NCBI GenBank assembly: GCA_963720265.1
Contig: CAVRET010000002.1
Coordinates: 392,704-456,703, forward strand
DNA length: 64,000 nucleotides
From: an uncultured bacterium
GTDB lineage: Bacteria; Patescibacteriota; Saccharimonadia; UBA4664
Reading direction: 5' to 3'
A program made the translations under genes and the position numbers. This document shows positions 3,016 through 19,038 of this stretch, one piece after another (within the stretch, counting starts at the first letter, position 1; the number at the start of each line of letters is the position of its first letter). The notes under the pieces were generated by a model. It saw only the letters and a program-made list of their open reading frames with translations. It made no database searches and was not told the DNA's origin.

Positions 3016-3090
<75 letters not shown>

Positions 3091-3492
3091 TAGTACTTAT
3101 GCTTATTTCCTGCTGTTATAATGTCTGGCATGGCAAAGACATCATCGATGAAGAAGATACTGGGTGAGGTGGAGTTTTTGCTTGAGCGATATTCAAAGGA
3201 ACGCCGAGCCACTACCCAGCCGTTTCTTCTCGAAGTCGTTCAACAAAAGTTTAAGGATTATCGGTATAATCCAGCAGACCTGCTAGTGCGTGAAACCCTA
3301 ATCGAGCACGTGGGCTCTCTCCCGATAGTGGCAACGGCTCTCTTCCCGTATATCGATGACCAGGATGTGGACTTGGGTAAGGCGCTTGTTATGCTTGCGA
3401 TTCACGATATCGGCGAGCTTGCCACCGGAGACGAGATTACCTTTACCAAGAAGTCAGAGTCAGCAGCAGCCGAGCAACACGAAGCTCTCAAA
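3091..3492 (+). repeat. Left copy of a ~400-bp direct repeat (intact); begins at the nucleotide after the tRNA-Met CCA and covers the 5' UTR plus codons 1-124 of the HD-domain gene
   Basis: Near-identical to 14261-14658. The first ~267 nt have one mismatch; thereafter the right copy carries several 1-nt deletions. Confidence 0.9.
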
Positions 3493-3780
3493 TTGCTGCC
3501 CAAGCAATATCATGAACTTTATCTCGACGTTGAATCTAAGTCCTCCCAGACTGCTAAATTTGCTAAGGCGATTGATAAAATCACTCCGGACATACTAGAC
3601 TACCTCACTCCGGGTAATATTACGGTGCCTCGTCTGCGTCACTTTGTTGGGATAGGGAAAGAGGAAATTGTAGACACCATCGTCAAACATAAGCGTCCTT
3701 ACATGCTCTGGAATCCGTTTATGACTGAGTTCCATGTTTACTTGATGGAGTGCCTGTCCGAAAAACTCTCGAACGATTAA
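3121..3780 (+). CDS. HD-domain phosphohydrolase (YfbR/5'-deoxynucleotidase-like)
   Basis: LAIHDIGELATGDE HD motif; 219 aa, the size of YfbR-like HD proteins. Confidence 0.65.
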   Translation: MSGMAKTSSMKKILGEVEFLLERYSKERRATTQPFLLEVVQQKFKDYRYNPADLLVRETLIEHVGSLPIVATALFPYIDDQDVDLGKALVMLAIHDIGELATGDEITFTKKSESAAAEQHEALKLLPKQYHELYLDVESKSSQTAKFAKAIDKITPDILDYLTPGNITVPRLRHFVGIGKEEIVDTIVKHKRPYMLWNPFMTEFHVYLMECLSEKLSND

Positions 3781-3789
3781 GTTGCTGAC

Positions 3790-5511
3790 CTAGTTCCATA
3801 CAATACTGGTAGTGTTGTTGGCCTCAGTACTGCTTAAGCCAGCGTACCAAGCGTGCAGTTCATCCCATACCTGGTTCCATTGAAACCCATCCAAGTCCAC
3901 CAATGTACGACTATTAGAACCGGAGCCAAATAAAAAGGCTTCCCCAAGCAACTTCGACCCTTTGGTCGATTTTTGCGTTTTAAGAGCTAGTTTTTGGGTA
4001 GCCAGTGCTTCTTTAACGTTTCGTAATGTGTTAAAAGGCTCAGCGGCCTTTCCATCGGCTTTAATCTCATCGTCCACCCGGTCAACCAATATCCGCTCGA
4101 AAATCGCCTGATTTATACGTTTGCGTATAATATCCGGTGCGACTTTGTAGGCCGAAGAGGCCTGCTTCATGAGCTCAATCGCAGCCTCTACGTGCTTCTC
4201 CAAGTCGCCAACATCCCTAGAGGCCATCTTAAGGGATGATTCGGCTTGCCGAATATCTTTGGCCAGTTGTTGCTGTTCTTGGGCTACCAAGTCGTCGGTA
4301 AGCTTGCCCGCGTAAAACAACTGCATGAGCTTATGCCGCGAGGCTGTCAGCTGTTGGATGCGTGTCGTTTGCCGCGTGACCTCTTTGTTTGCCGTCTCAC
4401 GGTCATCTTTGAGCAGCCCATGAATTGCCGCCTTAACATCCGAAGCCTCCTCCCCGGACAAATACACCCAACGATATTGCCGCTCAATGACCTGTTCTAC
4501 TTCGGCCACCGGCAAATATGGTAGGTCGCAGCTGGCATATTTCGTAGTCTTGCCGACGCAAAAGTAATACGGATACGTCTTACCGTAGGTGAAGCACAAC
4601 CGGAAGCCGCATCTCCCACAATATATTGTGCTTCTGAGGTAATGGTCGTATTTGCGTGACCTGTCCCCGGCCAGTTTTGCTTTCAGCATGTCCTGGACGC
4701 GCTGGAACAGATCTGGAGGCACGATTGGCTCATGCTTACCGTCATACGCTATCCCCCGGTATTTAAGCTTTCCGGCGTAGTACTCATTGCGCAGTAGCAC
4801 ATTGAGCCCACTCACCCCCAAACTTTTTGCCCCCGATGATTTATGCGGCCGTGCCGTTAGCCCTTTAGCATCGAGAATATCTACCAAATGCACCAGGGAG
4901 TACTGACCGGTGGCGTATTGCTCAAACGCAAACCGCACTAGCTCAGCCCGTTCGGGATCTAGCACCACGGTCTTTACCTCATGCCCTTCGACGATCTGGC
5001 GCGCGTTCACATAACCCAACGGCGCTTTATACGGCGTCCGGCCCAGCCGAGCTTTAATGGTCGCCCCTTTGATAACCTCATCGCTCAGATTATCTACATA
5101 GTATTCAGCCATATTCGCGAGCATACGCTCCATGAACTTGCCGGACGCCGAATCGTCAATGTGCTCAGACACGGATACCAGGCGCACGCCGTCCTCTAGA
5201 AGCGCATACTTCATGTTGGCATAGTCCCGTGTATTTCGGGCCAGGCGGTCGATCCGGTGAAAGATTGCCAGGTCAACATCTTTTGACTCGTGAACGAACT
5301 TCAGCATGGCTTGTAGTTCAGTTCGGTCGGCAAACTTTGCGCTTTCTCCCCGGTCCACGAACTCGCGCACCACTTCTGCTCCCAACTCCTCGGCCTTTTG
5401 GTGACAGGCTTCGCGCTGGGCCGGAATGCTGTATCCTTCCATGTCCAAGCCTTTTCGGGCTTGGTCGAGGGTTGAAACCCTTAAATATATAACGGCTTTC
5501 TTCATAGGCAC
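3790..5511 (-). CDS. Large serine recombinase (integrase)
   Basis: N-terminal resolvase catalytic domain (AVIYLRVSTLDQ...RIDRLARN), recombinase domain, Cys-containing zinc-ribbon (CGRCGFRLC...C..C) and a C-terminal coiled coil; 573 aa. Confidence 0.9.
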   Translation of the reverse strand: MPMKKAVIYLRVSTLDQARKGLDMEGYSIPAQREACHQKAEELGAEVVREFVDRGESAKFADRTELQAMLKFVHESKDVDLAIFHRIDRLARNTRDYANMKYALLEDGVRLVSVSEHIDDSASGKFMERMLANMAEYYVDNLSDEVIKGATIKARLGRTPYKAPLGYVNARQIVEGHEVKTVVLDPERAELVRFAFEQYATGQYSLVHLVDILDAKGLTARPHKSSGAKSLGVSGLNVLLRNEYYAGKLKYRGIAYDGKHEPIVPPDLFQRVQDMLKAKLAGDRSRKYDHYLRSTIYCGRCGFRLCFTYGKTYPYYFCVGKTTKYASCDLPYLPVAEVEQVIERQYRWVYLSGEEASDVKAAIHGLLKDDRETANKEVTRQTTRIQQLTASRHKLMQLFYAGKLTDDLVAQEQQQLAKDIRQAESSLKMASRDVGDLEKHVEAAIELMKQASSAYKVAPDIIRKRINQAIFERILVDRVDDEIKADGKAAEPFNTLRNVKEALATQKLALKTQKSTKGSKLLGEAFLFGSGSNSRTLVDLDGFQWNQVWDELHAWYAGLSSTEANNTTSIVWN

Positions 5512-5565
5512 GATTCTCCTGTTTAGTTCCGGAGAGGATACCAGATCTGAAGCGGATGGAAAGAG

Positions 5566-5922
5566 CTAATCCGGCCCAATCGTCTTATCTCGTGCATCAA
5601 ATAGGTAAATCTGCCGATCACCAGTAATAACGGTCGTGCCAAGCTGCCCGATTCGCAGGATGAGATCGTGGTACCGAGCACGTTTAGTCAGGTACCGGCC
5701 GCGGCTGGCAATGGCCAGGTCTATGGGTGTTTGCTCAAGATACGCCAGCATAACGTCAAGTCCTGGCCTCACTGCCGCGTCGGCCTTTACTCCGGCATCG
5801 ACAAACTCGGCCTCGATAACCGCACCGAGCTGAATAGCCATATCCTGACAAGCAATCCGTTGCTGCTCAATGGGCTCATCGTTTTTTATTGGCTGAACAC
5901 AAATATATAACCGCATGCACAA
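5566..5922 (-). CDS. Degenerate serine-recombinase (resolvase) catalytic-domain-like protein; the catalytic Ser position is not conserved
   Basis: RPGLDVMLAYLEQ..IDLAIASRGRYLTKRARYHDLILRIGQLGTTVITGD resembles resolvase core motifs. The N-terminus LYICVQP sits where IYxRVST is expected. Confidence 0.4.
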   Translation of the reverse strand: MCMRLYICVQPIKNDEPIEQQRIACQDMAIQLGAVIEAEFVDAGVKADAAVRPGLDVMLAYLEQTPIDLAIASRGRYLTKRARYHDLILRIGQLGTTVITGDRQIYLFDARDKTIGPD

Positions 5923-5982
5923 TACTAACCCTCGTTGTTGGAGGAGGAAGATACCAGAAAGTGGCTGAATTACAGAGGAACG

Positions 5983-6831
5983 TTACTTCTGGGCCAACCC
6001 CGACATCCGCTTAATGAGCAGCGCATATGTGTCCTCATGTTGTAGCAAAACCGTAAAGATCGAACCTAGGTCTTGGTATGGCGAGCGTTTGCGTACTTCT
6101 TTGCGAATATATTCTTCCATACGTTGCTCGCGGTCTTCGTCAAGCACTAAAAATACCACGCGCGGAAAGATGCCATCATAGTACTTCTGCTCCCGCCCTG
6201 TATGAAAATAGTCGCAGTACTGCTTAACTTTTTCACCAATCCGCTCTAGTCGCTCGGTTCCCATGTCGACCTCAATGAATCGGGGGAAGAGTTTGCCCTT
6301 GTCGGTGAGTACCACGAATGCGTCAGGCCGCAGTATCTGATCCTTGCCCCAAGAGAATCGTCGCCAACAATGCGGCTCAGCCACGAATTGCTTCAACGTG
6401 GGCGTCCACTCGGCATCAGATCGTTCCCGGTATGTGACGTATAGTTCGGTAACCGCCAGCCGGTGCTTAAGAAACGGTGCTTCTGGGTAGGGATCGCGCC
6501 AGTAATTAGGCTTATCCGGCATGGCAATCACCTGTCCTACTCGGTCGAGTGCGTAACAATACGGATCTGATCCACCGCCCAGGCCGCCGTTTGGTAATCG
6601 CCATCGGACAACTACTTCGAGGTCCTTTAGTTTCCGTAAGGCGATATTGCGCATCCGTACGCGAGACAAGGATGTGCCGGTAGCAAAGTGCAATCGCTCA
6701 ATCTGCTGACTGGTTGCAATTCTGACAAGTGCTAAGGCCTTGATGATATCTAGTGCCTTTGGTGACAGTTGCTGCCGAATGGTATAAACTCGGTTACCCG
6801 TGAGGCGTGAAGATTTAATCAAGATATACAC
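5983..6831 (-). CDS. Replication-relaxation (Replic_Relax) family protein
   Basis: Its N-terminal wHTH-like segment and overall 282-aa architecture resemble Replic_Relax proteins of actinobacterial integrative/plasmid elements. The assignment is by recall, not by search. Confidence 0.5.
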   Translation of the reverse strand: MYILIKSSRLTGNRVYTIRQQLSPKALDIIKALALVRIATSQQIERLHFATGTSLSRVRMRNIALRKLKDLEVVVRWRLPNGGLGGGSDPYCYALDRVGQVIAMPDKPNYWRDPYPEAPFLKHRLAVTELYVTYRERSDAEWTPTLKQFVAEPHCWRRFSWGKDQILRPDAFVVLTDKGKLFPRFIEVDMGTERLERIGEKVKQYCDYFHTGREQKYYDGIFPRVVFLVLDEDREQRMEEYIRKEVRKRSPYQDLGSIFTVLLQHEDTYALLIKRMSGLAQK

Positions 6832-7022
6832 CCTTTAGGGTTATATATAGTTGCTCCCACTATTTGACCTCGGATGCTTTTCCCAAGTCGAAACTGGCGT
6901 TCCGTCAACGAGGCGAGAGGAGGCACCATTGGAACACCTGATTGTAGCTTATTCCGCCCACCCGGAGCAGTTTCCAAATCGCTCAAGGCGACATGAGTGA
7001 TGGGTTGTTTTGTCATATTTGC

Positions 7023-7060
7023 CCCCTTTCGCAGTTGTGATGGATCACTGTAGCGATGAG
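7023..7060. repeat. Iteron-like 38-bp direct repeat, copy 1 (cccctttcgcagttgtgatggatcactgtagcgatgag) with internal IR GTGATggATCAC
   Basis: Imperfect direct repeat with 7474-7511. Confidence 0.6.
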
Positions 7061-7199
7061 GAGCGGATTAAGCAAGGGGCGCCTCCGACTCTGATTGTGG
7101 TGGTACAATTCGGGCAAGTATGGAAGTCATAGGCGCGTTGTCTAATATGTGAGGCTAAGTGGAATATACAAGGTTGTTACCCTTGGCAGAAGGTGAACT

Positions 7200-7505
7200 A
7201 TGGAAGGTTACGACAGATATACAATTTGGGGGCCAATTAACCAGCGGCGAGATGCGCAGCGAGGCAAGTATGCCGAGATAGAGCGCGCTCAAGCTGGTCT
7301 GAACAAACTTCGCACAAAGAATAGCCGCGAAATCGATCGAATAGCCCAAGAGGCTGATGCGCTGGCTGTTGAGTTTCACCGCTTGTACAACGAGGCGCAC
7401 GAAGCTTACGACAACGAAGATGGTGCCACAGACTTCCGAGTGTTGGATCGAATTGCTGAATATGCCATACGCACCCCCTTTCGCTCCGGTGATGGATCAC
7501 TGTAG
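7200..7505 (+). CDS. Hypothetical small charged/coiled-coil protein
   Basis: 101-aa ORF flanked by the iteron-like repeats. Confidence 0.35.
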   Translation: MEGYDRYTIWGPINQRRDAQRGKYAEIERAQAGLNKLRTKNSREIDRIAQEADALAVEFHRLYNEAHEAYDNEDGATDFRVLDRIAEYAIRTPFRSGDGSL

Positions 7506-7511
7506 CGGTGA
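7474..7511. repeat. Iteron-like 38-bp direct repeat, copy 2 (cccctttcgctccggtgatggatcactgtagcggtgaa)
   Basis: Matches 7023-7060 at about 31 of 38 positions, including the GTGATggATCAC palindrome. Confidence 0.6.
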
Positions 7512-7571
7512 AGTGGACATCAGGCGAGAGAGATTTACATTAGAGACAAGGACCAAAATCGACCAACCTGG

Positions 7572-7925
7572 CTATTTGCTTGCTGAAAGCGCCGCGCCGC
7601 CGTCAGAGCGAGTGCCTGGGGTGGGTAGTACATGCTGGGAGGTGAGCGTGATTGGGGCAAGCTCAGGGCTCCCGTGTGCCGCCATAGTCACTTCACCAAT
7701 AGACAATGAGAGTATCAGCGCTACAGATAAGGCGAAAATAGTGATGGCATATATACATACCAATCGTGGGAAATTAAATAGTTCAGGTACGCGGCTAGAG
7801 CGCTGGAGGTCATGTGTAGTCTCGATAATTACAATCTCTGGGTATGCCAAAGCTAATGCAATGGCCTTAACCAATTTTCGCTGGAGCGGATGCTGCTTGA
7901 GGTAAGGATAGATCGGGCTAGTCAT
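7572..7925 (-). CDS. Hypothetical membrane protein
   Basis: TM helix (LVCIYAITIFALSVALILSL); overlaps the next ORF by 8 nt. Confidence 0.35.
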   Translation of the reverse strand: MTSPIYPYLKQHPLQRKLVKAIALALAYPEIVIIETTHDLQRSSRVPELFNFPRLVCIYAITIFALSVALILSLSIGEVTMAAHGSPELAPITLTSQHVLPTPGTRSDGGAALSASK

Positions 7926-8289
7926 GGGTCTCCCTCCTTATTATCCATCCGAAAGAGTTCGTATGCATACTTAATATAAGAATCAAGCTTGCGACTAGAG
8001 AGCTCACGACTCCCGTTATAAATAACGGGACAGTACTCCAGTGCCACCACTGAACGGCCGCTTTGCCAATAATGCCAGCGATCGCGAACTTGAACAGGAT
8101 GGCGAGTATTAGAGAAAAAGCTCCCGTCAGGAAAGCCGACCATCGGAACGACAACTCGCTTCCGGCGAAAGCTTTGGTTAACTTGGCCGCCATGACAGCC
8201 AGCTCTGGCATTAGCACCAAGGCGCTCCCCACCATTGCCGGTATGATTTGGCTAATAACAGGAGAGCTCAGAAAGGCGCACGAAATCAT
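7918..8289 (-). CDS. Hypothetical multi-TM membrane protein
   Basis: Three or four predicted hydrophobic helices. Confidence 0.4.
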   Translation of the reverse strand: MISCAFLSSPVISQIIPAMVGSALVLMPELAVMAAKLTKAFAGSELSFRWSAFLTGAFSLILAILFKFAIAGIIGKAAVQWWHWSTVPLFITGVVSSLVASLILILSMHTNSFGWIIRRETHD

Positions 8290-8447
8290 ATCTGCTATTC
8301 TACGATGCGGATGTTTGCTTTGGGAAGCCTAGCCCCTACGCGTTCCCTCCCTCACGTATGCCGGTTTATCAAATCCTGGGCAAGGATGCACTGGTTAAGG
8401 CCACAAATTGAAATTAGCCGGTCTGTGTGACCGGCTAAAGTGCACTG

Positions 8448-8699
8448 TTATTTTGCTGCCATGTGTTTCCACCAATCAATGCTCGTTATATTGGGCAATT
8501 CTGCCCCGCGGTTAAGCGAAACAATGACGAGCTCTGGGAACCCAACGGCCACAAAAATAATTAACAGTATCAACTTAGAGACAGAGATCTGCCCATCTTG
8601 TTGTTTGTCCTTACTCATTTGGTAGCCCTCCTGTGGCGCAGTGGGCCCAGGCCCATCTCTGAGCCTTAAGTAAAGTATGAGAACATACTGTACGCACAA
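8448..8699 (-). CDS. Hypothetical small membrane protein
   Basis: Single TM (LILLIIFVAVGF). Confidence 0.25.
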   Translation of the reverse strand: MCVQYVLILYLRLRDGPGPTAPQEGYQMSKDKQQDGQISVSKLILLIIFVAVGFPELVIVSLNRGAELPNITSIDWWKHMAAK

Positions 8700-8758
8700 T
8701 ACCGTCTGCTGTCAAGGCAGATGGTCGGCCCAAATCCGGCGCCATAGGTGCGGATTGT

Positions 8759-10075
8759 CTATTCGGGCTTGGGCGATTGGCCCGTTGGTGCAGCTTTCTT
8801 GGTTTTCTTCCGGCCTTTTGGCCGATTACTTATCTCGGCGAACTCTTCGGCCGAATACTTCACCCATAGAGCGTTATTTCCAGCGTCAAGTCTAAAGGAA
8901 GTCCGGCTTTTGTCTTGGTGTGGCTCTTTGTAAATACTCCGCATAGCATCTAGCACGAAGTCCAGTATTTGCTCCTGGGCGTCGGGACTTGGGAAACGGC
9001 GGGCCAAGAGGTCTGTATATGTCTCCAAGGACAGGGCCATCGCGGCCTTAAATGCGTATCGCTCAGATAGGTTGCGTTCTTTCAGGTACTGACTCCACGC
9101 AAGGCCAAATAAAACCAATAAGGGCGTGAGGTAGACCAGGCGTGTTAGGGCTATCTGTTGCAGCGTCTGTGTTCGATGGGTGAAGGCAAGTATTACTGCG
9201 ATACCGACGATCAGGATTGCAATACCCACCACGCCATTGAGCCAGCTGCCAGACTGTCGCTCGACTGCTTTGCGTCGTTCGTCAAAGGCATTTGCGAGTC
9301 CGGTGTCGGTTGCGAGTTTGAGAACTTTTTCGATCTGTTCCCGTAGGTTCTCGCTCTCACTTTTTGTGTTGTTTATAGCTTCGGAGTCAGTCTGAGCCTG
9401 ATCAAGAAGCTTCTTTATTGCCACTACATCACCCTGGGACTGCCCTTGGAGTGCTCGAATGTCGTCGGTAAGTGATTTAGACTCAGCACGCAAAGCCGTT
9501 ACCTGATCAATAGCGGCCTGGAATCCTGTCGAGGGCTCGTCAATCTGTGCTTTGAGCTCGATGAAAGCTTGATAGCCCGCCCTCATTTCGCCAAGGTTGG
9601 CCTTAACTCCAGACAAGTCGGTTTCGATTTGTTCGACGAGTGTCGTCGAACGACTTGCTTCACCTGTAATCTGGCGGATTAGCTCCGCGGCCTTATTTAA
9701 CACCGCCTGTAATCCAGCACCCGGTTCATCTATCTGCATTTGGAGCTGTTGGAAAGCCGCAAATGCGCTCGCCATCGTGCCCGCGTGTGTCTGGACCTGA
9801 GACAAGGTGGTTTGGATTTCGGTTAATGCAGCGGTGGCTTGGGAACTCTGAGCGCGGATTTGGGCAATCTCTTGCTCCACTCCTTCCAACTTAGCTTCAG
9901 CGCCGATTGTTGGATCTTCAACACGCTTCAGTAGCCCCTCGGAACGAGACAGGTAGCCGTCAAGCTTGGTAGCGATTTCTTCGGCACGATCTAAATCGCT
10001 TTGTACCTGCTCAACTTTGGCGGCAAGCTGTTTACCGACTACGTCTAGAAGCGCCTTTAACTCTTTCTGATTCAT
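8759..10075 (-). CDS. Coiled-coil protein with internal sequence repeats and two C-proximal TM helices
   Basis: Repeated blocks F(Q/I)QL(Q/K)(M/A)QIDEP(G/S)(A/T)G(L/F)QA; hydrophobic segments GVVGIAILIVGIAVILAF and LVYLTPLLVLFGLAW. Confidence 0.55.
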   Translation of the reverse strand: MNQKELKALLDVVGKQLAAKVEQVQSDLDRAEEIATKLDGYLSRSEGLLKRVEDPTIGAEAKLEGVEQEIAQIRAQSSQATAALTEIQTTLSQVQTHAGTMASAFAAFQQLQMQIDEPGAGLQAVLNKAAELIRQITGEASRSTTLVEQIETDLSGVKANLGEMRAGYQAFIELKAQIDEPSTGFQAAIDQVTALRAESKSLTDDIRALQGQSQGDVVAIKKLLDQAQTDSEAINNTKSESENLREQIEKVLKLATDTGLANAFDERRKAVERQSGSWLNGVVGIAILIVGIAVILAFTHRTQTLQQIALTRLVYLTPLLVLFGLAWSQYLKERNLSERYAFKAAMALSLETYTDLLARRFPSPDAQEQILDFVLDAMRSIYKEPHQDKSRTSFRLDAGNNALWVKYSAEEFAEISNRPKGRKKTKKAAPTGQSPKPE

Positions 10076-10416
10076 TGGGCACCAGGATAATAGCTTCCGC
10101 CATAGTAGGCTCTAAATAGGCAATCATCAAGCTTAACCGATGTAACTTGATACTGCACGGGCTATGACGGCCGTGGAATACGGAGCTCGAAAATCTCACC
10201 TCTCCAAACCACCAGATCCCCGCCGCTTAACTGGCGCGCTTAGAACCTGCAGGGTGCACATTTTACGGACATGACCTAAGCCCTTTCTCGTTTTGCAATT
10301 ATCGACGCATCAAACTGCCTGAGAGTGGTCTAAAAAGTACCCCGATTTTACCATAAGGATTTTAATCCTCAACGCTCGCTGTTGATCCCAGATTACAGAA
10401 CCGCAGCTGTACCGTA

Positions 10417-10980
10417 ATGTTACGCTATAACTGGGATTCAATAATTAAACTCGTCATGTGGAAAAGACTAAACTCCAAAACACTGCTTAACCACCCACGA
10501 CTCGTAGTTGTAGAAGATGAAGTCGAATTACCAAACGGTCAGATTGTCGATTATGTAAGATTCGACGGAAATCGTAGGAGCGTAACGGTTATTTGCGTCG
10601 AGCGGGACAAAGTCCTCATTCAGGACGAATACTCATACCCACCTAATGAAGTACTCAAAGAGTTTCCCGGCGGTGGAATTGAAGAAAGCGAAACTCCCAA
10701 AGAAGCTGCCAAGCGCGAGCTTATCGAAGAATGTGGTCTGCTCGCCCACAACCTCACTGGGCTCGGCTGGTATTACATCAATAACCGTCGCAGTGCCGAG
10801 AAAATGTATGTATATCTTGCAGACAACGTCACTAAACACAGAAAAACCGGCGGCGATCCTGAGGAGAACGCCCGACAATCTTGGGTAACTACCAACGAGT
10901 TAAGTAGCATGATTGCCGGTGGCCACATCACCAACTACTCAGTGCTCGCAGCGTGGGCAATATACAAGAGCAAGCAATGA
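10417..10980 (+). CDS. NUDIX hydrolase (ADP-ribose pyrophosphatase-like)
   Basis: Nudix box GGGIEESETPKEAAKRELIEECG. Confidence 0.8.
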   Translation: MLRYNWDSIIKLVMWKRLNSKTLLNHPRLVVVEDEVELPNGQIVDYVRFDGNRRSVTVICVERDKVLIQDEYSYPPNEVLKEFPGGGIEESETPKEAAKRELIEECGLLAHNLTGLGWYYINNRRSAEKMYVYLADNVTKHRKTGGDPEENARQSWVTTNELSSMIAGGHITNYSVLAAWAIYKSKQ

Positions 10981-11786
10981 TAACCGAGATATCTCTTATT
11001 TCCCTAAACATTGCTGGCTTCCCATTCCCACATCACACTCATGCCAGAGTAGCGGCGTTTTGTAGGTCAATCAAATCTTCCGATGCAATAGTAATAAATC
11101 TTCAAGAAGTACATACGTATGCCTTACTTTGGCAGCTCCGTAGGCGCCTGCCGCAATTCCCACACATCAGCTACAATCTCGGAATGCTAGGTCCACGAGC
11201 CGGGCTCGTCACATTCTCGAGACTTCCGATTCAAAGCCAGGACTTCTTTGCGCTCGCGCCAGCCACTAGCGTGCTACCGCACAGTAAACAACCGCCAAGA
11301 GCCATGATGGAGAGCAAGCATAAAGGGGTGCTCATAACACGACTAGGCTCAATGATTATTATGAACGCCCACCTCAACCCCAATATGGATGGCGATTGGT
11401 CGCGGGATAATCGCTTCTATCCGGTACATAACGTCCAGCTCGAAGCAGTCAACAAACTGGTTAATATGAAGTTCCCTGATTCAGTAATAATTCTGAGTGG
11501 GGACTTTAACTTGGCGAAAGACTGCGACTTATTTCCTCAGTTTGTGAATGACGGTAACTGGAATGACACCTTTTCCAGCGATCTGACGCCAACCTTCCAC
11601 TCTGAGTTTCTTAAACCCGGTAGAACCCCACACTGCATAGACTATGTATTATTCCGTGACCCAAAGAACAAATTAAAAGTTGAACAAACCGCATTCATGG
11701 CTGCAGATAAGATCAAGCTCAGAAACGGTGTCGAGTCGTATATCTCAGATCACCTCGGGTTATACGCCAAGCTGACAGGACTCTAG
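10953..11786 (+). CDS. Endonuclease/exonuclease/phosphatase (EEP) family protein
   Basis: INLQEVH, SGDFNL and SDHLGLYAKL motifs typical of the EEP fold; overlaps the NUDIX gene by 28 nt, so they form an operon. Confidence 0.7.
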   Translation: MGNIQEQAMITEISLISLNIAGFPFPHHTHARVAAFCRSIKSSDAIVINLQEVHTYALLWQLRRRLPQFPHISYNLGMLGPRAGLVTFSRLPIQSQDFFALAPATSVLPHSKQPPRAMMESKHKGVLITRLGSMIIMNAHLNPNMDGDWSRDNRFYPVHNVQLEAVNKLVNMKFPDSVIILSGDFNLAKDCDLFPQFVNDGNWNDTFSSDLTPTFHSEFLKPGRTPHCIDYVLFRDPKNKLKVEQTAFMAADKIKLRNGVESYISDHLGLYAKLTGL

Positions 11787-11857
11787 TGGGATTCGGGGAT
11801 CACCCCGGAGGCATTCGCACGTAGCCTCCAGGGTGATCCCGGCATGAGTTAAAGCCC

Positions 11858-12601
11858 CTACCGAGACCTGAATAGCTTCAACTCAAGGAACTTCGCGATC
11901 TGGACGCCCAGGTACTCGACCCAGCCGGGCACATGCTCGCGCGTCTTCGGAAGGATCCACTTGAAGAAAATATACACTGGGTACTTCCGCCTTCGGGCAC
12001 GGATGAACCGGTGGAACTCACGGTACTCTGGTACGTCGTGGAACCCTGCCCCAGACGCCATGATGAGCTTGGCCAGCCGATGTGCAACCGGCCAGTCCTT
12101 GTCTCGCATTACGCCGCCGTTTGTCACGAACGTGTGATATAGCGTATTAAGCTCAAGCGTCACGATCGTGTGCCCGAAAAAGCTCCGCTCTACTGGCCGG
12201 AAGAGGCTTGTTGGTACGGGCATACGAAGATTCCGATGAGTCAGGTACGAGAGCTTCTCATCGGGCCGGAAGTCGATGTGCACGGCTGACGGATGGATCT
12301 CGAGATTAATCGAGAAACCCTCCGCTGTAGCCAGCGCCCTCCGGTAAGGTTCGACACGGGGAAGATCAGCGTGGGGTATTAGCAGATCCACGTCAGGCAC
12401 CTGTTGATGGACGAGCCTTGCTCCCGGTCGGCCGAATCGAGCGAGTGCCGGGTCGTTAAGATACGAACTCGTGGCAAGGCTGCCGATAATTCGGTACTCG
12501 ATGCCGTGCTCTCGGAACCATGCTTGTATCTCATCAAGCTTCGCCAGGAAGAGCACTCGCAGCTCAGCTGGTGAAGCGTCCTCCAACGGTCGTTTTGGCA
12601 T
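11858..12601 (-). CDS. Hypothetical protein with a weak nucleotidyltransferase-fold-like motif (GS...DVDLLI)
   Basis: IIGSLATS....PDVDLLIPH resembles a Pol-beta NTase hG[GS]..D[hD] motif, but the spacing is atypical. Confidence 0.35.
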   Translation of the reverse strand: MPKRPLEDASPAELRVLFLAKLDEIQAWFREHGIEYRIIGSLATSSYLNDPALARFGRPGARLVHQQVPDVDLLIPHADLPRVEPYRRALATAEGFSINLEIHPSAVHIDFRPDEKLSYLTHRNLRMPVPTSLFRPVERSFFGHTIVTLELNTLYHTFVTNGGVMRDKDWPVAHRLAKLIMASGAGFHDVPEYREFHRFIRARRRKYPVYIFFKWILPKTREHVPGWVEYLGVQIAKFLELKLFRSR

Positions 12602-12627
12602 AATTATGTCTCTCCGCTCGGATGGGG

Positions 12628-13764
12628 TCAGCTTTGCCTGATCGACCGGCGCATGTCTTGCAGTAGGAATGTTTCCAACTGAGAGACGAGTGACGGGTGG
12701 TTTGTAGCGATGCCGACCTCTGACGTTCTACCGGCTAGGAAGCCGTTGAAGATGTTAGACCCGTAAAGGCCCCAGTCATCTGCCAGAAGTCCCTTGGCAT
12801 GTGTCATGCCGCCGTTTTCGCGGAACCGGAACACATGAACTCCGGCCGCTCCCATACGGTCAAAGTCGGCCTCGGTTGGCGCTAGGACTCGTCGGTTGTT
12901 ATGCAAAGGGGCTATCACCGACACATCAGCTCGCTGCTCGCGTGCCGACTCGCTAAGGACTCCTTGCATGCCAGAGCCCCACAAGTACGCTGACTCGATG
13001 ATTACCCGTCGCTGGGCCCGCCCAATAAAGAACTGGACGAGCGGCAAGATGAGTGATCGCCGGTATGAATCTGTGACTACGAGCCCGTCGCTATACGGCA
13101 CGATCCTACCTGGGTTGTACTCTGCCCACGTACGGTCGATGTCGTCTTTCAGTACGAGCACCACGTCACCGGTCATCTTGACCATGAAATCGTTCCAGGA
13201 GGCGTTATGCTCGGAGAGATTGATTCCGCCCGCATAGGCTACGGCTAGCTCTGGTGCGTCGCCGTCAATCACGACGATCTTCTTGTGGTTTCTCCTCAGA
13301 GCCCGATACTTCATGCGGCCAAGAGGATTAACCATGCGCACTTCAATACCCTCTCGGCGCATAAAGTCGATCAAGTGGAGGGTTGCCCTCCACTCCTCCA
13401 GGGTTTCCCGATAACGCCACGGCTGGAGGCGAGCGAGCAGTAGATACTCGTCGTTGTGGCTAAGGTTGATATAATCGTCGATGCCGAAACGGACTGGAAT
13501 ACCCGATCCTCTCGCCTCCATAAGGGCATGAGCCACCGGGAGTCCGACAGCGTCGGCCTCGAAAGTATGAAACTGGAGGTCGATTCGCGAGGAAGCTTGG
13601 CTAATCCCCGGAATCAGGTCTGCCAGGAATGTCTCGGCACTCGGCAGAAGCTGGTAGGTGCAAAGATTAGCCGGCGTTGCGGCATTGTGTGCGGCCAGAA
13701 GCGAAGCATACTCACCAACCGAAACGACGGTAACCGCACGTGCTCTTCGCTGAGTCATTATCAA
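12628..13764 (-). CDS. Phospholipase D (HKD) superfamily protein; cardiolipin-synthase/Nuc-like
   Basis: Two HKD motifs: NHKKIVVIDG...GGINLSEHN and THAKGLLADDWGLYGSNIFN. Confidence 0.8.
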   Translation of the reverse strand: MIMTQRRARAVTVVSVGEYASLLAAHNAATPANLCTYQLLPSAETFLADLIPGISQASSRIDLQFHTFEADAVGLPVAHALMEARGSGIPVRFGIDDYINLSHNDEYLLLARLQPWRYRETLEEWRATLHLIDFMRREGIEVRMVNPLGRMKYRALRRNHKKIVVIDGDAPELAVAYAGGINLSEHNASWNDFMVKMTGDVVLVLKDDIDRTWAEYNPGRIVPYSDGLVVTDSYRRSLILPLVQFFIGRAQRRVIIESAYLWGSGMQGVLSESAREQRADVSVIAPLHNNRRVLAPTEADFDRMGAAGVHVFRFRENGGMTHAKGLLADDWGLYGSNIFNGFLAGRTSEVGIATNHPSLVSQLETFLLQDMRRSIRQS

Positions 13765-13904
13765 GCTCCAAAAGCTTACTAAAAATAGCTAGACTGCTGC
13801 CTAGCTACCATCGTGTAAGTTCCAGATGCTCTTTTAGCATAAACCGCATAATTGGGCAAACGAAAAGCAATTATACCCGCCGATTAATTTAATGAACGCT
13901 AACA

Positions 13905-14261
13905 CTATGCACGCAAACTGGTTGCTCGAAGAGCAATATAGCGACCGCGATTGTCTCGAAGCTGAGTGGCAATATTTGGCCCGCGCGACCGCAGCTTTAC
14001 ACCGCTAACAGTTAACAATTCGGCGAGCCGCTCACGATTTATCCCGCTTAAACCGGCCAGCTCCCGAAGCGTTGTACCGGACTGGTAGGCGAGGACAAGT
14101 CTATTTAGCTCGGCCGCGCTGAGCTGCCTAGTTCGGTTCCGGAGCCGTATATGACGCCTTCTAACTACTGGCCACGATTCCCAGCCTTGTAGGTCCTGGT
14201 TAAGTTTGGCGCAAACTTCATATGCCTCGGCTTTCTGATAGCTCTCACGCAGAACCACCAA
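13905..14261 (-). CDS. Small HTH-domain protein, paralog A (putative element-end regulator or directionality factor); TTG start
   Basis: TLRELAGLSGINRERLAELL is an HTH-like segment. It is a paralog of 18276-18647, and its first ~45 nt recur at 14661-14704. Confidence 0.5.
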   Translation of the reverse strand: MVVLRESYQKAEAYEVCAKLNQDLQGWESWPVVRRRHIRLRNRTRQLSAAELNRLVLAYQSGTTLRELAGLSGINRERLAELLTVSGVKLRSRGPNIATQLRDNRGRYIALRATSLRA

Positions 14262-14658
14262 AGTACTTATGCTTATTTCCTGCTGTTATAATGTCTGGCA
14301 TGGCAAAGACATCATCGATGAAGAAGATACTGGGTGAGGTGGAGTTTTTGCTTGAGCGATATTCAAAGGAACGCCGAGCCACCACCCAGCCGTTTCTTCT
14401 CGAAGTCGTTCAACAAAAGTTTAAGGATTATCGGTATAATCCAGCAGACCTGCTAGTGCGTGAAACCCTAATCGAGCACGTGGGCTCTCTCCCGATAGTG
14501 GCAACGGCTCTCTTCCCGTATATCGATACCAGGATTGGACTTGGGTAAGGCGCTGTTATGCTTGCGTTCCGATATCGGCGAGCATGCCACCGGAGACGAG
14601 ATTACCTTTACCAAGAAGTCAGAGTCAGCAGCAGCTGAGCAACACGAAGCTCTCAAAT
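14255..14658 (+). repeat. Right (degraded) copy of the ~400-bp direct repeat
   Basis: Aligns to 3085-3492 at an offset of 11170. It carries 4 single-nt deletions and several substitutions after position ~14527. Confidence 0.9.
14291..14658 (+). pseudogene. Frameshifted 5' fragment of an HD-domain gene (duplicate of the 3121-3780 gene)
   Basis: Identical N-terminal 79 codons, then frameshifts; truncated at codon ~124. Confidence 0.85.
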
Positions 14659-14660
14659 AG

Positions 14661-14704
14661 CTAGGCCTCGGCGTTCTGATAGCTCTCACGCAGAACCACC
14701 AAAG
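14661..14704 (-). repeat. Third, orphan copy of the 5' end of the small HTH gene (encodes only ..VVLRESYQNAEA then a stop)
   Basis: ggcctcggcgttctgatagctctcacgcagaaccaccaaag matches 14224-14263 and 18576-18616. Confidence 0.7.
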
Positions 14705-14762
14705 TAGTTATGCTTATATCAGAATGACAGATTACGACCGACCTAAGGCTTATACTTAAAGC

Positions 14763-15374
14763 ATGGGCAAAGTAGGCCGAAATGATCCATGCCCGTGCGG
14801 CAGTGGAAAGAAGTTCAAGAAGTGTCATTATGGCGACTATGACAGTACTTTCTCACTCGAAGATACAAAACTGCCAGTCGTGACCTGCAGCGTAAATGAC
14901 GACTTTCAAGACTCTGGCTTAGCCGTCGTTTTTGTAGCTAGGCAGCATAATAACGGTCATAATTTGAACATTGTCTGCTATCTTTGCGACATATTTTGTC
15001 TCGGAGTTAAGAACGTTAGCAAGTACCCATCCTCGTCTATTCGCACCGTCGAAACCCTGCAAGAGCGCTATGATCTCGATTTTATGGACATCGATTATCA
15101 GGACGCACGGGACTTGATTTTAGGTAGCGTTCGCTACGCTGGCAATCTTGGGTTTCAACCGCATCGGGACTGGGAGCGAGCCGAGCACTTCATTGAGTCT
15201 GATCAGCCCTTCGATTCTAACCGCTTCTCTTACGGATCTGATGGACGGCCACTCTATGTCGCCGGACCTGATGACGATTATGATTACATCATGTCGACTT
15301 TGAGAGAATGCGTCGGAGAAGGTAGCTTTGAGTACGTAATCGAACCCGGTATGGGCTTTGATACAAAGATTTAA
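14763..15374 (+). CDS. SEC-C motif domain protein
   Basis: N-terminal [16 protein letters not shown] (SEC-C metal-binding motif); the rest is uncharacterised. Confidence 0.65.
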
Positions 15375-17572
15375 AATAAGCTCATTTGATCTGTGCTAAT
15401 CCGCCCCTTCTTGCTAGTGGCTGATTGTCGAGCGATGCCAAGACTACGATATGTCCGCAATCGCTTAAAATACATTGCTTTCAACATTGGTACCCTTAAG
15501 TCGCTGTAATCGTATACAAAAGTTTGCTGGGGTGATGCCGCCGCACTTCGCTGCAATCGACCAACGTACTGAACCACCTTGCCCTTATACGTGAAGGGGA
15601 AAACTAAAAACAAATGGGTCAGTTCCGGCCAGTCAAACCCTTCACCGATGAGCTTCCCAGTAGATATCAGGAGTTTAAAACGCTCCTGAGTAATACGCCT
15701 TCGCAGGCCTGCTCGCTCTTTTAGGGTGTTCTTCCCGGTCACAATTGCGGCATGCGTGCCTTTAGACCGCTGCCTGACCAGATCCAGCAGTATCTGACAG
15801 TGCTCCACTCGCTCGGTTAATACAAGGCACTTTGCGCCAGCCTCCAGCGCAGCTGCAATGTCATCAGCAATCATCTCATTGCGCTCGTTGTCAGCGATTA
15901 GTAGAGATGCTACCTCGTGAAATTCAGAGTTCCTTCGGCCAGCCAGTTCAAACTCAGTGGTCTTCACGACAAGAGACATAGTGGTAATTGGCTCCTGAGA
16001 AAGCTTCGAATCGCCTATCGGTTGGGTCTTGCTTGATACGCGTAAAATTGACCCAATGTAAAACTCCAGCATCCGGTCTAACTGATCTCGCCTCATGGCG
16101 GTTGCAGTTAGCCCCAGTACGTATTTCGCTTCGAGCAACTTGAGCACATTCGTAAATGTTCTGGCGGGTACGTGGTGGCATTCATCGATTATCACGAAAC
16201 CAAATGTGCTGCGGATATCCTCTACGCCGCGCCTATTGAGCGTCTGATAAGAGGCTAGCGTAACTTTACGACCAAGCTGCCATTTGCCTTCCCCAATGAT
16301 GCCAAGATCATCTTCTTTAAGGTCAAAGCACTCGCGAATACGTGTGGCCCATTGTTCAAGGAGTTCTCGAGTATGAACAATGATCAAAGTCTTCTGTCGT
16401 AGCTTACTCATACAGTAAAGGCCCACAATCGTCTTGCCGAACCCGGGGCCAGCTTCCAGGATCGATCTAGGTTTAGCAAGCAGTTCATTCGCAGCTCGTC
16501 GTTGCTCCGGCCGAAGCTTTATGTTCGATTTGACCCGCGTGACAGGTACAATCGCCTGTTGATCGTTGAAGGTTAGCTTAACCTTAGTCTTTTCGGCAAA
16601 CCCACTGATTTCTGTTAAAAATCCAGCTGGAATCAAGATGCCATCCTGTCCTTTTTCTATTGTGGTTATGTAGCGGGGTATGGCATGGGTTGAATAACCG
16701 TTACGCTGGCTCTCCAGGTACTTAGGGTTAGGAAAATTGAGCCGCGATTTTAAGAACTTATAGAGCTCTGCTGGCAACGAAGTCGCCGGTATATATATCT
16801 GGTTACTTAGTACAAGTTCAGCGTGAGATCCGTCAGCAGGGCTATATGCCAGATCTTCGTACTTGTCACATACGTCAGGATCAGCTTGCGGCTTCTCGGC
16901 AGTCGTGTCCGGTGGAGCCAATATGCGGTCTATAGTTAGTTCATCAACTTTAGTCATTGCTTTCAGGATGCTCCACTGGTCCGGATAAGCCTCCCCACGT
17001 TCATCTATAAAAGCTGCCCTACCGGTTGTGATCAGCTCCCCTTGCAGGGGTAGAGCGATCAAATTCCCGAATCCCCGACCAGTATGAAAATCCTGGCTAG
17101 GGAACAATCTATCGTAACTTTGCCGTCGCGTTATGCCCGCCCGCTCAAGTAGCAGTTGCCCCAACTGCCTTGCCTTGGCGCCAGGAATGGTTGTTTGAAA
17201 GAAGATCCATACATGGGCACCATCACCAGATCGTGACCGCTCAACGTAAGCCGGTATGGAATACCTTGCCGCGCTTTTACAAAACCGGTCGGCTTCGTGT
17301 AGCCAGTCGCCGTGGTCAAAGTCCGCAGCCATGAAATACGTAGAGTTTTCCTTAAGAAGGGGATATATGCCGATAGTAACACTGCCGTTCAGGTGAGCCG
17401 CGATAGTGGCATCTGTGAGACCTGCGGGCTGCTTGTTAATAGTGAACACCGGAGCGTATCCGATTCTATTAGCCGCTGGGTTTTGCCAAAGTTTGGCATA
17501 CACGTCAGTGCGCCCACGAAACAGTGAACGGTATAAGCTAATTTGCTCTGGGGTAATAACGCCAGTGTTCAA
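15371..17572 (-). CDS. Primase-polymerase (PrimPol/AEP-like) N-terminal domain fused to an SF2 DExH helicase
   Basis: N-terminal motifs AADFDHGDW and [13 protein letters not shown] (AEP catalytic motifs). Helicase motifs: Walker [16 protein letters not shown], and a C-terminal helicase domain. Confidence 0.7.
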
Positions 17573-17675
17573 TAAGATATCCTAAGCCAAAATACAGATA
17601 CATATTATACCCAAAAGTCTATCCAACATATCTGGTAAATGGTATAATTAGACTAATTAAACGGTAGCAGCGGGT

Positions 17676-17870
17676 ATGGCAGCACGAGATTGGCGAAAGC
17701 TTTACCAACAATATCGAGGACAGTGGGTCGCTCTCAAAGAAGATGAGATCACCGTAATTGCTAGTGGCTCAACGCTAAAAGGAGTACTCGCTGAGGCGGC
17801 AAAGCTTAGCTATCCCGATCCGCCTCGCGTAACCAAAATGCCATCTGACCTGCGGGTCTTCGTAGGTTAA
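17676..17870 (+). CDS. Small protein (64 aa), possibly DUF5678-like; partner of the downstream protease
   Basis: Stops 4 nt before the start of the next ORF; no catalytic motif. Confidence 0.4.
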   Translation: MAARDWRKLYQQYRGQWVALKEDEITVIASGSTLKGVLAEAAKLSYPDPPRVTKMPSDLRVFVG

Positions 17871-17874
17871 CGGC

Positions 17875-18261
17875 TTGAAGTTTAAATACGTCCAGTATTC
17901 GGGTACGGTCGTTCGTCCTGTTATTCCAATACGAGTGAGCAATGGCAAGCAGACAATAGCCTATGATGTGCTTGTCGATTCCGGTGCGGACATTAATGAC
18001 TTCGATGCAGAACTAGCTGAAGTGCTCGGTATTGATTTGAAAACTGGCGTACCGGCCGAGGTCATGGGACCAACTGGCTATCCTGCGGAAGTGTATATTC
18101 ACCCCGTTAAGCTAACTGTCGGCGAGCATACATTTACAGCTCAAGTTGCATTTATGCCGACATCAAATCCATTTGGGCTTGCCGGGCAACGTGGTTTCTT
18201 CGACCAATTTGAGATCAAGTTTAATTTACGTGAGCAAGAAGTAGAGCTTACAAAACTTTAA
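17875..18261 (+). CDS. Retropepsin-like (clan AA) aspartic protease
   Basis: LVDSGADIN is a D(S/T)GA catalytic motif; the 128-aa size is typical of retropepsin-like domains. Confidence 0.65.
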   Translation: MKFKYVQYSGTVVRPVIPIRVSNGKQTIAYDVLVDSGADINDFDAELAEVLGIDLKTGVPAEVMGPTGYPAEVYIHPVKLTVGEHTFTAQVAFMPTSNPFGLAGQRGFFDQFEIKFNLREQEVELTKL

Positions 18262-18275
18262 GGCCGTAGCGTTAA

Positions 18276-18647
18276 TTAGGGCGCCCCCAAATATCTGCCT
18301 TTCTCATCCCGAGGTTGGATGGAGCTATTTGGTCCGCGAGGCCGTAATTCGACTCTAGAGGCCCGAATCAGCAATGCTAACCGTTCCCGATTGATACCAA
18401 ATTCTTGAGTCAATTCTCGTAATGTACGCCCAGCCCGGTAGGCGTCAGTTGCTTTGGCGAGTGTCTCTTCCGCCAGATGCACCGAACGACGTCTCACGCG
18501 TTTAGCTCCACAAGTTCGTGCGCACCAGTTACTCCGGTCTTCCAGATCTTGGCTCAACTTTGTATATTGAGCATAGGCTTCTGCGTTCTGATAGCTCTCA
18601 CGCAGGACCACCAAAGAATTATCAGTGTTCCTCACCCAGCGGCTCAT
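18276..18647 (-). CDS. Small HTH-domain protein, paralog B
   Basis: LVVLRESYQNAEAY...TLRELTQEFGINRERLALLI; paralog of 13905-14261. Confidence 0.5.
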   Translation of the reverse strand: MSRWVRNTDNSLVVLRESYQNAEAYAQYTKLSQDLEDRSNWCARTCGAKRVRRRSVHLAEETLAKATDAYRAGRTLRELTQEFGINRERLALLIRASRVELRPRGPNSSIQPRDEKGRYLGAP

Positions 18648-19038
18648 CCAAAATCCGCGCCAGCATCTTGGCCACCCGGTCGTTTGAATCTTGCAACGAG
18701 CGGTTTTTGGCTAGCAGTTTGCGCTCAGCCTGTCGCAGCCGGTGGATCACCCAGGTCATCACCAGGCCATCAATCAGATAGATGAGAATCTGCAATATCC
18801 CGGCCCAATGCACGTCCGGGTAATATTCCGGGTGGATAAAGATGTAATCGATCAGCCCCGCCGACAGCACGAGCGACAAAATGGCCGGTCCCGTGCCCAG
18901 AAACGCCGCTGACAGAATAATCGCCAAATAGTACAACAGCAGTGGCGTGTGAATGCTCAGCGCCGGCACGTAATATTTCACCATCGTAATGGCTGATACG
19001 AGCAGGAACGATAAGACATACGCAGCCACTTTTCGCAT
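18622..19038 (-). CDS. DUF4118-like membrane domain protein (KdpD-type sensor domain, stand-alone)
   Basis: Three TM helices followed by a charged tail, a pattern resembling DUF4118. Confidence 0.45.
   Translation of the reverse strand: MRKVAAYVLSFLLVSAITMVKYYVPALSIHTPLLLYYLAIILSAAFLGTGPAILSLVLSAGLIDYIFIHPEYYPDVHWAGILQILIYLIDGLVMTWVIHRLRQAERKLLAKNRSLQDSNDRVAKMLARILDEPLGEEH

Follow-up and report, generated by a model that had tools for sequence, protein, structure and literature searches.

A conserved pair of DUF5678 and retropepsin-like protease genes, a possible toxin-antitoxin-like cassette of candidate phyla radiation bacteria

The window analysed here is a stretch of 64,000 nucleotides (nt) of contig CAVRET010000002.1 (positions 392,704 to 456,703, forward strand) from an uncultured bacterium of the Saccharimonadia (Patescibacteriota). 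It carries a small gene for a DUF5678 protein directly upstream of a gene for a retropepsin-like aspartic protease, and we found that the two genes are conserved together as a compact cassette. Moreover, covariation between the two proteins argues for a direct contact between them. The conserved pairing and the probable contact are new; both component families were already named in databases, in which the small protein is entered as "DUF5678 domain-containing protein" and its neighbor as "retropepsin-like aspartic protease". A full-text literature search with DUF5678, PF18929, and retropepsin plus antitoxin or toxin-antitoxin returned no description of the pair.

The first-pass annotation of this DNA had reported an open reading frame (ORF) for 64 amino acids (aa) that ends 4 nt before a 128-aa ORF with the motif LVDSGADIN, and this was exact in all details when compared with the ORF list and the sequence. 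The features of the cassette, in window positions, are as follows.

17676..17870, + strand: DUF5678 gene (small partner), ATG start, 64 aa; from the ORF list and Pfam PF18929
17871..17874, + strand: spacer CGGC, 4 nt, between the DUF5678 stop and the protease TTG; from the sequence
17875..18261, + strand: retropepsin-like aspartic protease gene, TTG start, 128 aa; from the ORF list and Pfam PF13650 / PF13975
17971..17997, + strand: codons of LVDSGADIN (protease residues 33-41), with the codon of the catalytic Asp35 at 17977-17979
17835..17867, + strand: codons of the tail KMPSDLRVFVG (DUF5678 residues 54-64); from conservation over 143 paired sequences
17639..17648, + strand: candidate extended -10 promoter element TGGTATAAT, read from the sequence, 28 nt 5' of the DUF5678 start
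17642-17662: imperfect palindrome GTATAATTAG/CTAATTAAAC, overlapping the candidate -10 element; from the inverted-repeat listing

The DUF5678 gene ends with TAA at 17868-17870. TTG is the first start codon in the open frame of the protease, and the product, (M)KFKY, aligns to residue 1 of its homologues (MKFxY). Since these homologues begin M-K-F-x-Y at the same aligned position, the TTG start is sound. The geometry of the junction makes translational coupling of the two genes plausible. A consensus promoter scan gave no call at the candidate -10 element because a matching -35 hexamer was missing.

How strictly the two genes go together was seen from both sides. A scan with the protease profile over one genome per species (GTDB) gave 183 relatives, and the loci of the best 80 were retrieved. 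DUF5678 was directly upstream on the same strand in 78 of the 78 evaluable loci, and a protease without DUF5678 was found in 0 of them; the other 2 loci were left out since the contig ends just before the protease. At the junction, the genes overlapped by the four nucleotides ATGA in 49 of 76 loci and by 11 or 17 nt in 9, and 18 had gaps of 0 to 12 nt, the compact bicistronic layout of type II toxin-antitoxin systems. When metagenome contigs were retrieved with DUF5678 as the seed, the protease was directly downstream in 67/77, with 3 further loci left out because they are cut by the contig end. The remaining 10 of the 77 were orphans that lacked the protease despite at least 300 nt of room; their tails were intact, no D[ST]GA motif was found downstream, and no alternative neighbor was consistent. 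By eye, one orphan (locus L096, 2607-3380) adjoins a 58-aa ORF and a Fic/Doc-like ORF with the motif HPFREGNGR, and another lies in a locus (L160, 83-1514) with several small paired ORFs of toxin-antitoxin-like appearance. The first-pass annotation had named two findings that would speak against its proposal, a pair not kept together in other genomes and a small ORF without homologues; the pair is conserved, and homologues of the small ORF are many.

In one Streptomyces strain (L083, and likewise L082 and L084), the DUF5678 gene is intact, and the reading frame of the protease is interrupted by a stop and a frameshift. Two loci, L012 and L042, contain a second copy of the cassette within 3 kb of the first. 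In the second copy of L012 (7568-8165), the pair is divergent, with DTGA as the motif, a different tail, and a 29-nt gene overlap, and thus the pair architecture reaches distant paralogues. In the second copy of L042 (8105-8520), DUF5678 is intact and the protease is truncated after about 65 residues.

The 128-aa product is a genuine protein of the retropepsin fold, and its catalytic motif is intact. This identity, which the first-pass annotation had assigned, was upheld by the motif, Pfam, the family profile, an AlphaFold2 (AF2) model, and Foldseek. The window protein alone matched Pfam Asp_protease_2 (PF13650) with 24.4 bits, which is borderline at a gathering score of 24.3, and the match to gag-asp_proteas was below threshold. 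This score is backed up by 75 homologues, by a confident model, and by structural matches. The homologues were found down to E = 1e-78 in a collection of 5.8 billion proteins, and most of them have precomputed PF13650/PF13975 assignments. The AF2 monomer has the retropepsin fold with a predicted local distance difference test (pLDDT) score of 93.9 and a predicted template modeling (pTM) score of 0.86. With this model as the query, Foldseek found 227 chains of the Protein Data Bank (PDB) at E ≤ 0.001, and the 50 listed were retropepsins in 50 of 50 cases; matches to retroviral and Ddi1-type retropepsins had a probability of 1.0, HIV-1 protease was matched with E = 2e-5, and the Rickettsia protease APRc (5c9f) had the highest query TM-score (TMq) among the top 50, 0.70. 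Also, the family profile matched yeast Ddi1, the proteases of FIV, HIV-1, and HIV-2, and APRc among PDB chains, with E = 0.004-0.05.

In an alignment of 68 homologues, D35, S36, and G37 were invariant and L33, A38, and D39 nearly so; P15, F93, G104, Q105, G107, F108, F109, and F116 were invariant as well. A second conserved glycine motif reads GLAGQRGFF. The glycine-containing hairpin 59-82 is in the position of the flap, with a local dip in pLDDT (77), as expected of a flap. Thus, three features of clan AA members, the D-[TS]-G-A motif after hydrophobic residues, the family profile, and the beta-barrel with a flap hairpin, are present. The protein is the 128-residue domain alone, with no extra domain detected. 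It presumably forms a homodimer to which each subunit contributes one catalytic Asp35, and the invariant D35/S36/G37 in the predicted fold suggest an active enzyme. Neither this protein nor its partner matched any NCBIfam model, which excludes TIGR02281 and TIGR03698, presumably the clan-AA models of that collection.

The small protein matched DUF5678 (PF18929) over residues 9-49 with 29.2 bits, at a gathering score of 23.2, and all 75 aligned relatives matched PF18929 as well. A profile search gave 118 homologues, and a scan of 1.84 billion representatives gave 1391 clusters (50% identity) with E ≤ 1e-3, of which 244 had E ≤ 1e-10. With 118 homologues and 1391 clusters, the small ORF is a real gene. 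Nearly all of the clusters are stand-alone proteins of 60 to 90 residues. Natural fusions were looked for among the top 150 representatives and rejected, as the longer proteins appear to be mis-started or read-through products and no extra domain recurred. A link to a known antitoxin fold was likewise dropped after a Pfam scan of 75 members at E ≤ 1 gave no consistent second family. The AF2 model (pLDDT 74) has the order alpha1 (6-13), beta1 (17-20), beta2 (27-31), alpha2 (34-43), and beta3 (51-54), followed by a poorly ordered C-terminal tail. The best viral matches to this model in BFVD were Pandoravirus proteins, either annotated as DUF5678 or unannotated (probability 0.99-1.0, TMq 0.57-0.67), and the DUF5678 fold is therefore also present in giant viruses of amoebae.

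The Pfam match does not include the tail. Poorly ordered as it is, the tail ranks with the most conserved parts of the protein. Over 143 paired sequences it has the family motif [KR][MV]PxxLxx[YF]VG, in which P56 and G64 are nearly invariant, and the mean pLDDT of this last block is 49 in the monomer model. After VG there are extensions of 0 to about 5 residues whose sequence is not conserved. Type II antitoxins are classically built in this way, as a folded core with a C-terminal tail that is conserved yet poorly ordered.

The two proteins have evolved together. Pairwise identities of DUF5678 correlated with those of the protease with r = 0.657 over 134 nonredundant pairs, against a maximum of 0.17 in 500 permutations, and the two genes have therefore passed as a unit through inheritance and transfer. 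Together with the pairing counts and the ATGA junctions, this correlation bears out the tightly linked two-component module proposed in the first-pass annotation. Chance adjacency or a spurious small ORF, to which only the borderline Pfam score of the protease would lend anything, was excluded by the pairing in both directions, the 1391 clusters, the coevolution, and the high-confidence retropepsin model, and we give it practically no probability.

Covariation was then assessed by mutual information with average-product correction (MI-APC) in a concatenated alignment of about 108 effective sequences. The top inter-protein scores, 0.37, 0.36, and 0.29, were on a par with those of the best pairs within the protease, 0.51 and 0.30. 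The covarying columns were not scattered: residues 34-52 of DUF5678 were linked to residues 6-31 and 47-57 of the protease. Two of the top three inter-protein pairs make physical sense. DUF5678 position 48 and protease position 20 show a charge swap, with K-E (30 cases), D-R (13), T-K (9), and E-R (3), the window pair being D48 and R20; DUF5678 position 34 and protease position 50 show a size swap, A with I or L (53) versus L or V with A (37). With partners shuffled inside each of 32 sequence clades, the highest scores dropped to about 0.20 and those of the two swap pairs to about 0.11. The covariation is thus good, though not conclusive, support for a direct contact, which would place alpha2-beta3 of DUF5678 on the first hairpin and the short helix of the protease. 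From the order of secondary structure elements, mapped without coordinates, we take this region to be roughly the fulcrum and flap-elbow side of retroviral proteases.

The pair was found in changing surroundings. When the flanking ORFs of the 80 genome loci were clustered, no gene besides the pair was common to more than 9 loci, and the immediate neighbors were assorted unrelated housekeeping genes, e.g., for glycosyltransferases and EF-Tu. In 7 CPR loci, the gene of ribosomal protein L5 (rplE; Ribosomal_L5, Ribosomal_L5_C) is directly upstream of the cassette (e.g., L031, 4176-4739). Most records are labeled as Patescibacteria, or candidate phyla radiation (CPR), lineages. The labels outside the CPR include Gemmataceae and Frigoriglobus (Planctomycetota), Actinomycetota, and Streptomyces; 10 records are labeled Gammaproteobacteria, a label that could not be verified. 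A protein at least 90% identical is labeled Candidatus Saccharimonadia, and the window contains no rRNA. The Streptomyces cassette (L085, 6001-6650; L083, 6001-6500) lies among Replic_Relax, ParA-like, and Mrr_cat genes. Two Curtissbacteria loci, L012 (4763-5503) and L035 (4765-5503), share 93% nucleotide identity over 741 nt, that is, over the cassette only, and L025 and L030 (4763-5381) share 85% identity confined to about 620 nt that span the cassette; in neither comparison was there a flanking segment of at least 300 nt with at least 85% identity. This suggests that the cassette alone was recently exchanged or is unusually strongly conserved. An autonomous cassette with variable context and patchy spread is what type II toxin-antitoxin systems present, and the patchy distribution in variable contexts implies a probable transfer of the cassette between lineages.

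The reading that we favor, if tentatively, is that DUF5678 is an antitoxin-like inhibitor and the protease its effector in a type II toxin-antitoxin-like or abortive-type module. The locus would be an autonomous two-gene operon that moves between lineages. DUF5678 would be made from the gene just upstream, probably translationally coupled to the protease, and the two proteins would form a complex. In it, DUF5678 would dock through its alpha2-loop-beta3 face (34-52) on the N-terminal strand and first beta-hairpin of the protease (6-31) and on its short helix (45-50). From this anchor, the tail, MPxxLxx[YF]VG, could reach the substrate cleft or the sheet of the dimer interface, and it may block the cleft as a mimic of product or pseudo-substrate, or else the terminal-strand dimer interface. 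DUF5678 would thereby act as the cognate antitoxin-like inhibitor that silences a potentially self-damaging protease, which would be set free once the inhibitor is lost or titrated away. In this scheme, we infer the predicted inhibition by the tail and the putative toxicity of the free protease.

We favor a type II toxin-antitoxin-like module because the operon is overlapping, the cassette is autonomous, the spread is patchy with extra copies, the protease is never alone, the partner is sometimes alone, decayed proteases stand beside intact partners, and the small protein has the layout of core plus tail. The first-pass annotation had offered a toxin/antitoxin-like or a substrate/processing pair as alternatives. 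The genomic behavior leans to the first, since the protease never occurs alone, its partner sometimes does, decayed proteases are found next to intact partners, and the neighborhoods vary. A more specific proposal, which we consider possible but somewhat doubtful, is that the pair founds a toxin-antitoxin-like family enriched in CPR/Patescibacteria. Its effector would be a retropepsin, restrained by a small protein that docks on it and plugs either the substrate cleft or the dimer interface with an invariant C-terminal tail.

Several observations weigh against an inhibitor and a toxic effector. The CPR neighborhoods of the cassette consist of housekeeping genes and are not defense or toxin-antitoxin islands. 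No relatives were found among the plasmids of PLSDB or the viral contigs of IMG/VR, and PHROGs gave no match. In PADLOC-DB 2.0, DUF5678 was unmatched and the protease had only marginal, superfamily-level matches (E ~0.01) to PDC-M08B and PDC-M52B. The small protein resembled no solved structure: Foldseek of its model against the PDB gave no significant match (best E = 2.1), and its profile matched PDB sequences only once, spuriously, in a repeat protein. In the Pfam scan of 75 members at E ≤ 1, there was no helix-turn-helix (HTH), ribbon-helix-helix (RHH), AbrB, or Phd signature. Inverted repeats upstream of the cassette, examined in 126 related loci, were not enriched over controls (mean z of 0.41 versus 0.33), so that an operator role or autoregulation is unsupported. 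DUF5678 is thus without the recognizable DNA-binding domain or operator signal of type II antitoxins; DNA binding and autoregulation are not universal among type II systems. Furthermore, known retropepsins are sequence-selective processing enzymes and not general toxins, and the covariation, which draws on about 108 effective sequences, may still contain a phylogenetic component. On its genomic features, the pair appears to behave like a type II toxin-antitoxin system, but it cannot be filed as one.

Much of this would be expected if DUF5678 were an obligate cofactor or adaptor that stabilizes the protease dimer or recruits substrates for a nontoxic, selective processing, e.g., in CPR episymbionts. 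Strict co-occurrence and covariation suit any obligate complex, retropepsins are usually selective enzymes, the CPR neighbors are housekeeping genes, with rplE in 7 loci, and neither carriage by plasmids or phages nor a DNA-binding domain or operator signal was found. But a partner that serves the protease only should not occur as an orphan with an intact tail, as it does in 10 of 77 loci, nor stay intact beside decayed proteases, and a scattered occurrence among phyla, extra copies in tandem, and sites on integrated elements suggest a selfish cassette and not a housekeeping function. We therefore regard a cofactor as rather unlikely.

The conserved tail might also be a substrate. In that case, the protease would clip it, e.g., at [YF]-V, and so activate or inactivate DUF5678. 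The tail is conserved, hydrophobic or aromatic, poorly ordered, and next to the docking surface, retropepsins cut extended segments with a hydrophobic or aromatic residue at P1, and overlapping genes fit a stoichiometric cosynthesis. However, the window protein and its close relatives end with ...FVG, and a cut at [YF]-V would leave 2 residues on the primed side, where 3 to 4 are normally needed on each side. The unconserved extensions of 0 to about 5 residues indicate that nothing functional would be released, and a single-turnover substrate would leave the constant pairing of the protease unexplained. A substrate/processing pair is, in our view, unlikely.

The surroundings of the cassette in the window agree with its carriage on a mobile unit, as proposed in the first-pass annotation. 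A tRNA-Met gene (3016-3090) is followed by a block of about 15.5 kb with a lower G+C content that extends to about 18.6 kb. Within the block, the G+C fraction stays at about 0.47-0.53 apart from a local peak of 0.57 near 12-13 kb; the flanks on either side have 0.56-0.61. The block contains a large serine recombinase and a Replic_Relax gene, and the cassette is at its far end from tRNA-Met. No attachment-site repeat of more than 10 nt was found between the end of tRNA-Met and the right edge. Window positions 3016-18650 are probably an integrated mobile or defense island. The genes there and at its right edge are as follows.

3790-5511, - strand: large serine recombinase
5566-5922, - strand: resolvase fragment
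5983-6831, - strand: Replic_Relax gene
10417-10980: NUDIX gene
10953-11786: EEP-family nuclease/phosphatase
12628-13764, - strand: PLD-like protein
13905-14261, - strand: gene of about 120 aa with a weak HTH_58 match, paralogous to the HTH-like gene at 18276-18647
14763-15374, + strand: SEC-C-motif protein gene, whose 3' end overlaps the 3' end of the convergent AEP-TOTE gene by 4 nt
15371-17572, - strand: AEP-TOTE primase-polymerase fused to an SF2/ResIII helicase, 733 aa
18276-18647, - strand: HTH-like gene of about 120 aa with a weak HTH_58 match, directly after the cassette
18622-19038, - strand: stand-alone DUF4118 membrane-domain protein, 138 aa, at the right edge of the island; its start region and the end of the HTH-like gene overlap

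The AEP-TOTE domain was matched by PF22548 with E = 2e-68 and by the CRISPR-associated PrimPol of PADLOC with E = 7e-63. This gene was considered as a part of the module and rejected: it is transcribed divergently from the cassette, is kept only in L086 and L087 (about 80% protein identity), and is absent from all distant loci. The two HTH-like paralogues (50% identity, E = 6e-31) bracket the block of SEC-C, AEP-TOTE, DUF5678, and protease genes, and the one at 18276-18647 keeps its place beside the cassette in L086 and L087, which are close relatives. DUF4118 is an N-terminal module of sensor kinases.

A location on an integrated element raises the possibility of an ImmR/ImmA-like switch, in which DUF5678 would repress the element and its cleavage by the protease would induce excision or transfer. 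The order of a small regulator followed by a protease is as in immR-immA, the pairs of the window and of Streptomyces are on integrated elements with recombinase or Replic_Relax genes, and in the window the palindrome overlaps the candidate -10 element. Yet DUF5678 has no HTH or other DNA-binding signature, the upstream palindromes are not enriched, and mobile-element genes are lacking near most of the 80 genome loci, where only the pair is conserved. Such a switch is very improbable.

Stand-alone prokaryotic retropepsins are few and poorly understood, and DUF5678, with at least 1391 clusters, has no assigned function; their constant co-travel and probable binding give both families a concrete hypothesis. 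If DUF5678 is indeed an inhibitor, aspartic proteases would join the chemistries of toxins and effectors, and the small protein would be a naturally occurring inhibitor of a retropepsin that holds on at an exosite and plugs with its tail, which is of comparative interest for the regulation of retroviral proteases. If the pair does found a family of its own, the reduced genomes of CPR bacteria would contain an addiction or abortive module whose mechanism belongs to a hitherto undescribed class. As the module occurs mainly in uncultivated bacteria of the CPR, it may bear on the stability of their genomes or on how they interact with host cells. If the pair turns out to be an ordinary processing enzyme with its cofactor, the result is a useful annotation and no surprise.

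Among the closest known systems are type II toxin-antitoxin modules, which share with the cassette a small upstream gene that overlaps a larger one, autonomy, patchy spread, tandem copies, orphan partners, decayed effectors, a core with a tail, and, as is probable for the cassette, binding of the two products. They differ in that the small protein of the cassette has no DNA-binding domain or operator signal and that the cassette was not found on plasmids or phages. To our knowledge, no described toxin is an aspartic protease. ImmR/ImmA and Xre/COG2856 pairs, some of them on integrated elements, also have the gene of a small protein ahead of a protease gene in a single operon, but their products are a zinc metalloprotease and a helix-turn-helix repressor, neither of which is present in the cassette.

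The protease itself has the fold and the catalytic motif of HIV-1, HIV-2, and FIV protease and of yeast Ddi1 (profile matches with E of about 0.004-0.01). Unlike these, it stands outside a polyprotein or an architecture with ubiquitin-like and UBA domains, has a dedicated small partner, and carries an extra, highly conserved N-terminal segment, MKFxYxxY...RPVIPI. Bacterial relatives have been described: APRc (RC1339; PDB 5c9f) of Rickettsia is a membrane-embedded retropepsin-like protease (PMC4140852), and those of Pseudomonas aeruginosa are secreted (PMC11957051). Like the window protease, they are single retropepsin-type domains with the D-[ST]-G-A motif, but APRc is only 16% identical to it and a DUF5678 partner is not described for any of them. 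In Sulfolobales, Asp_prot retropepsin proteins of about 100 aa (e.g., Saci_1895) lie beside type III CRISPR-Cas loci (PMC3973734). They are archaeal, linked to CRISPR, and reported without a DUF5678 partner, but, compared by their description, they are stand-alone prokaryotic retropepsins like the protease of the cassette and a precedent for such enzymes in a context of defense.

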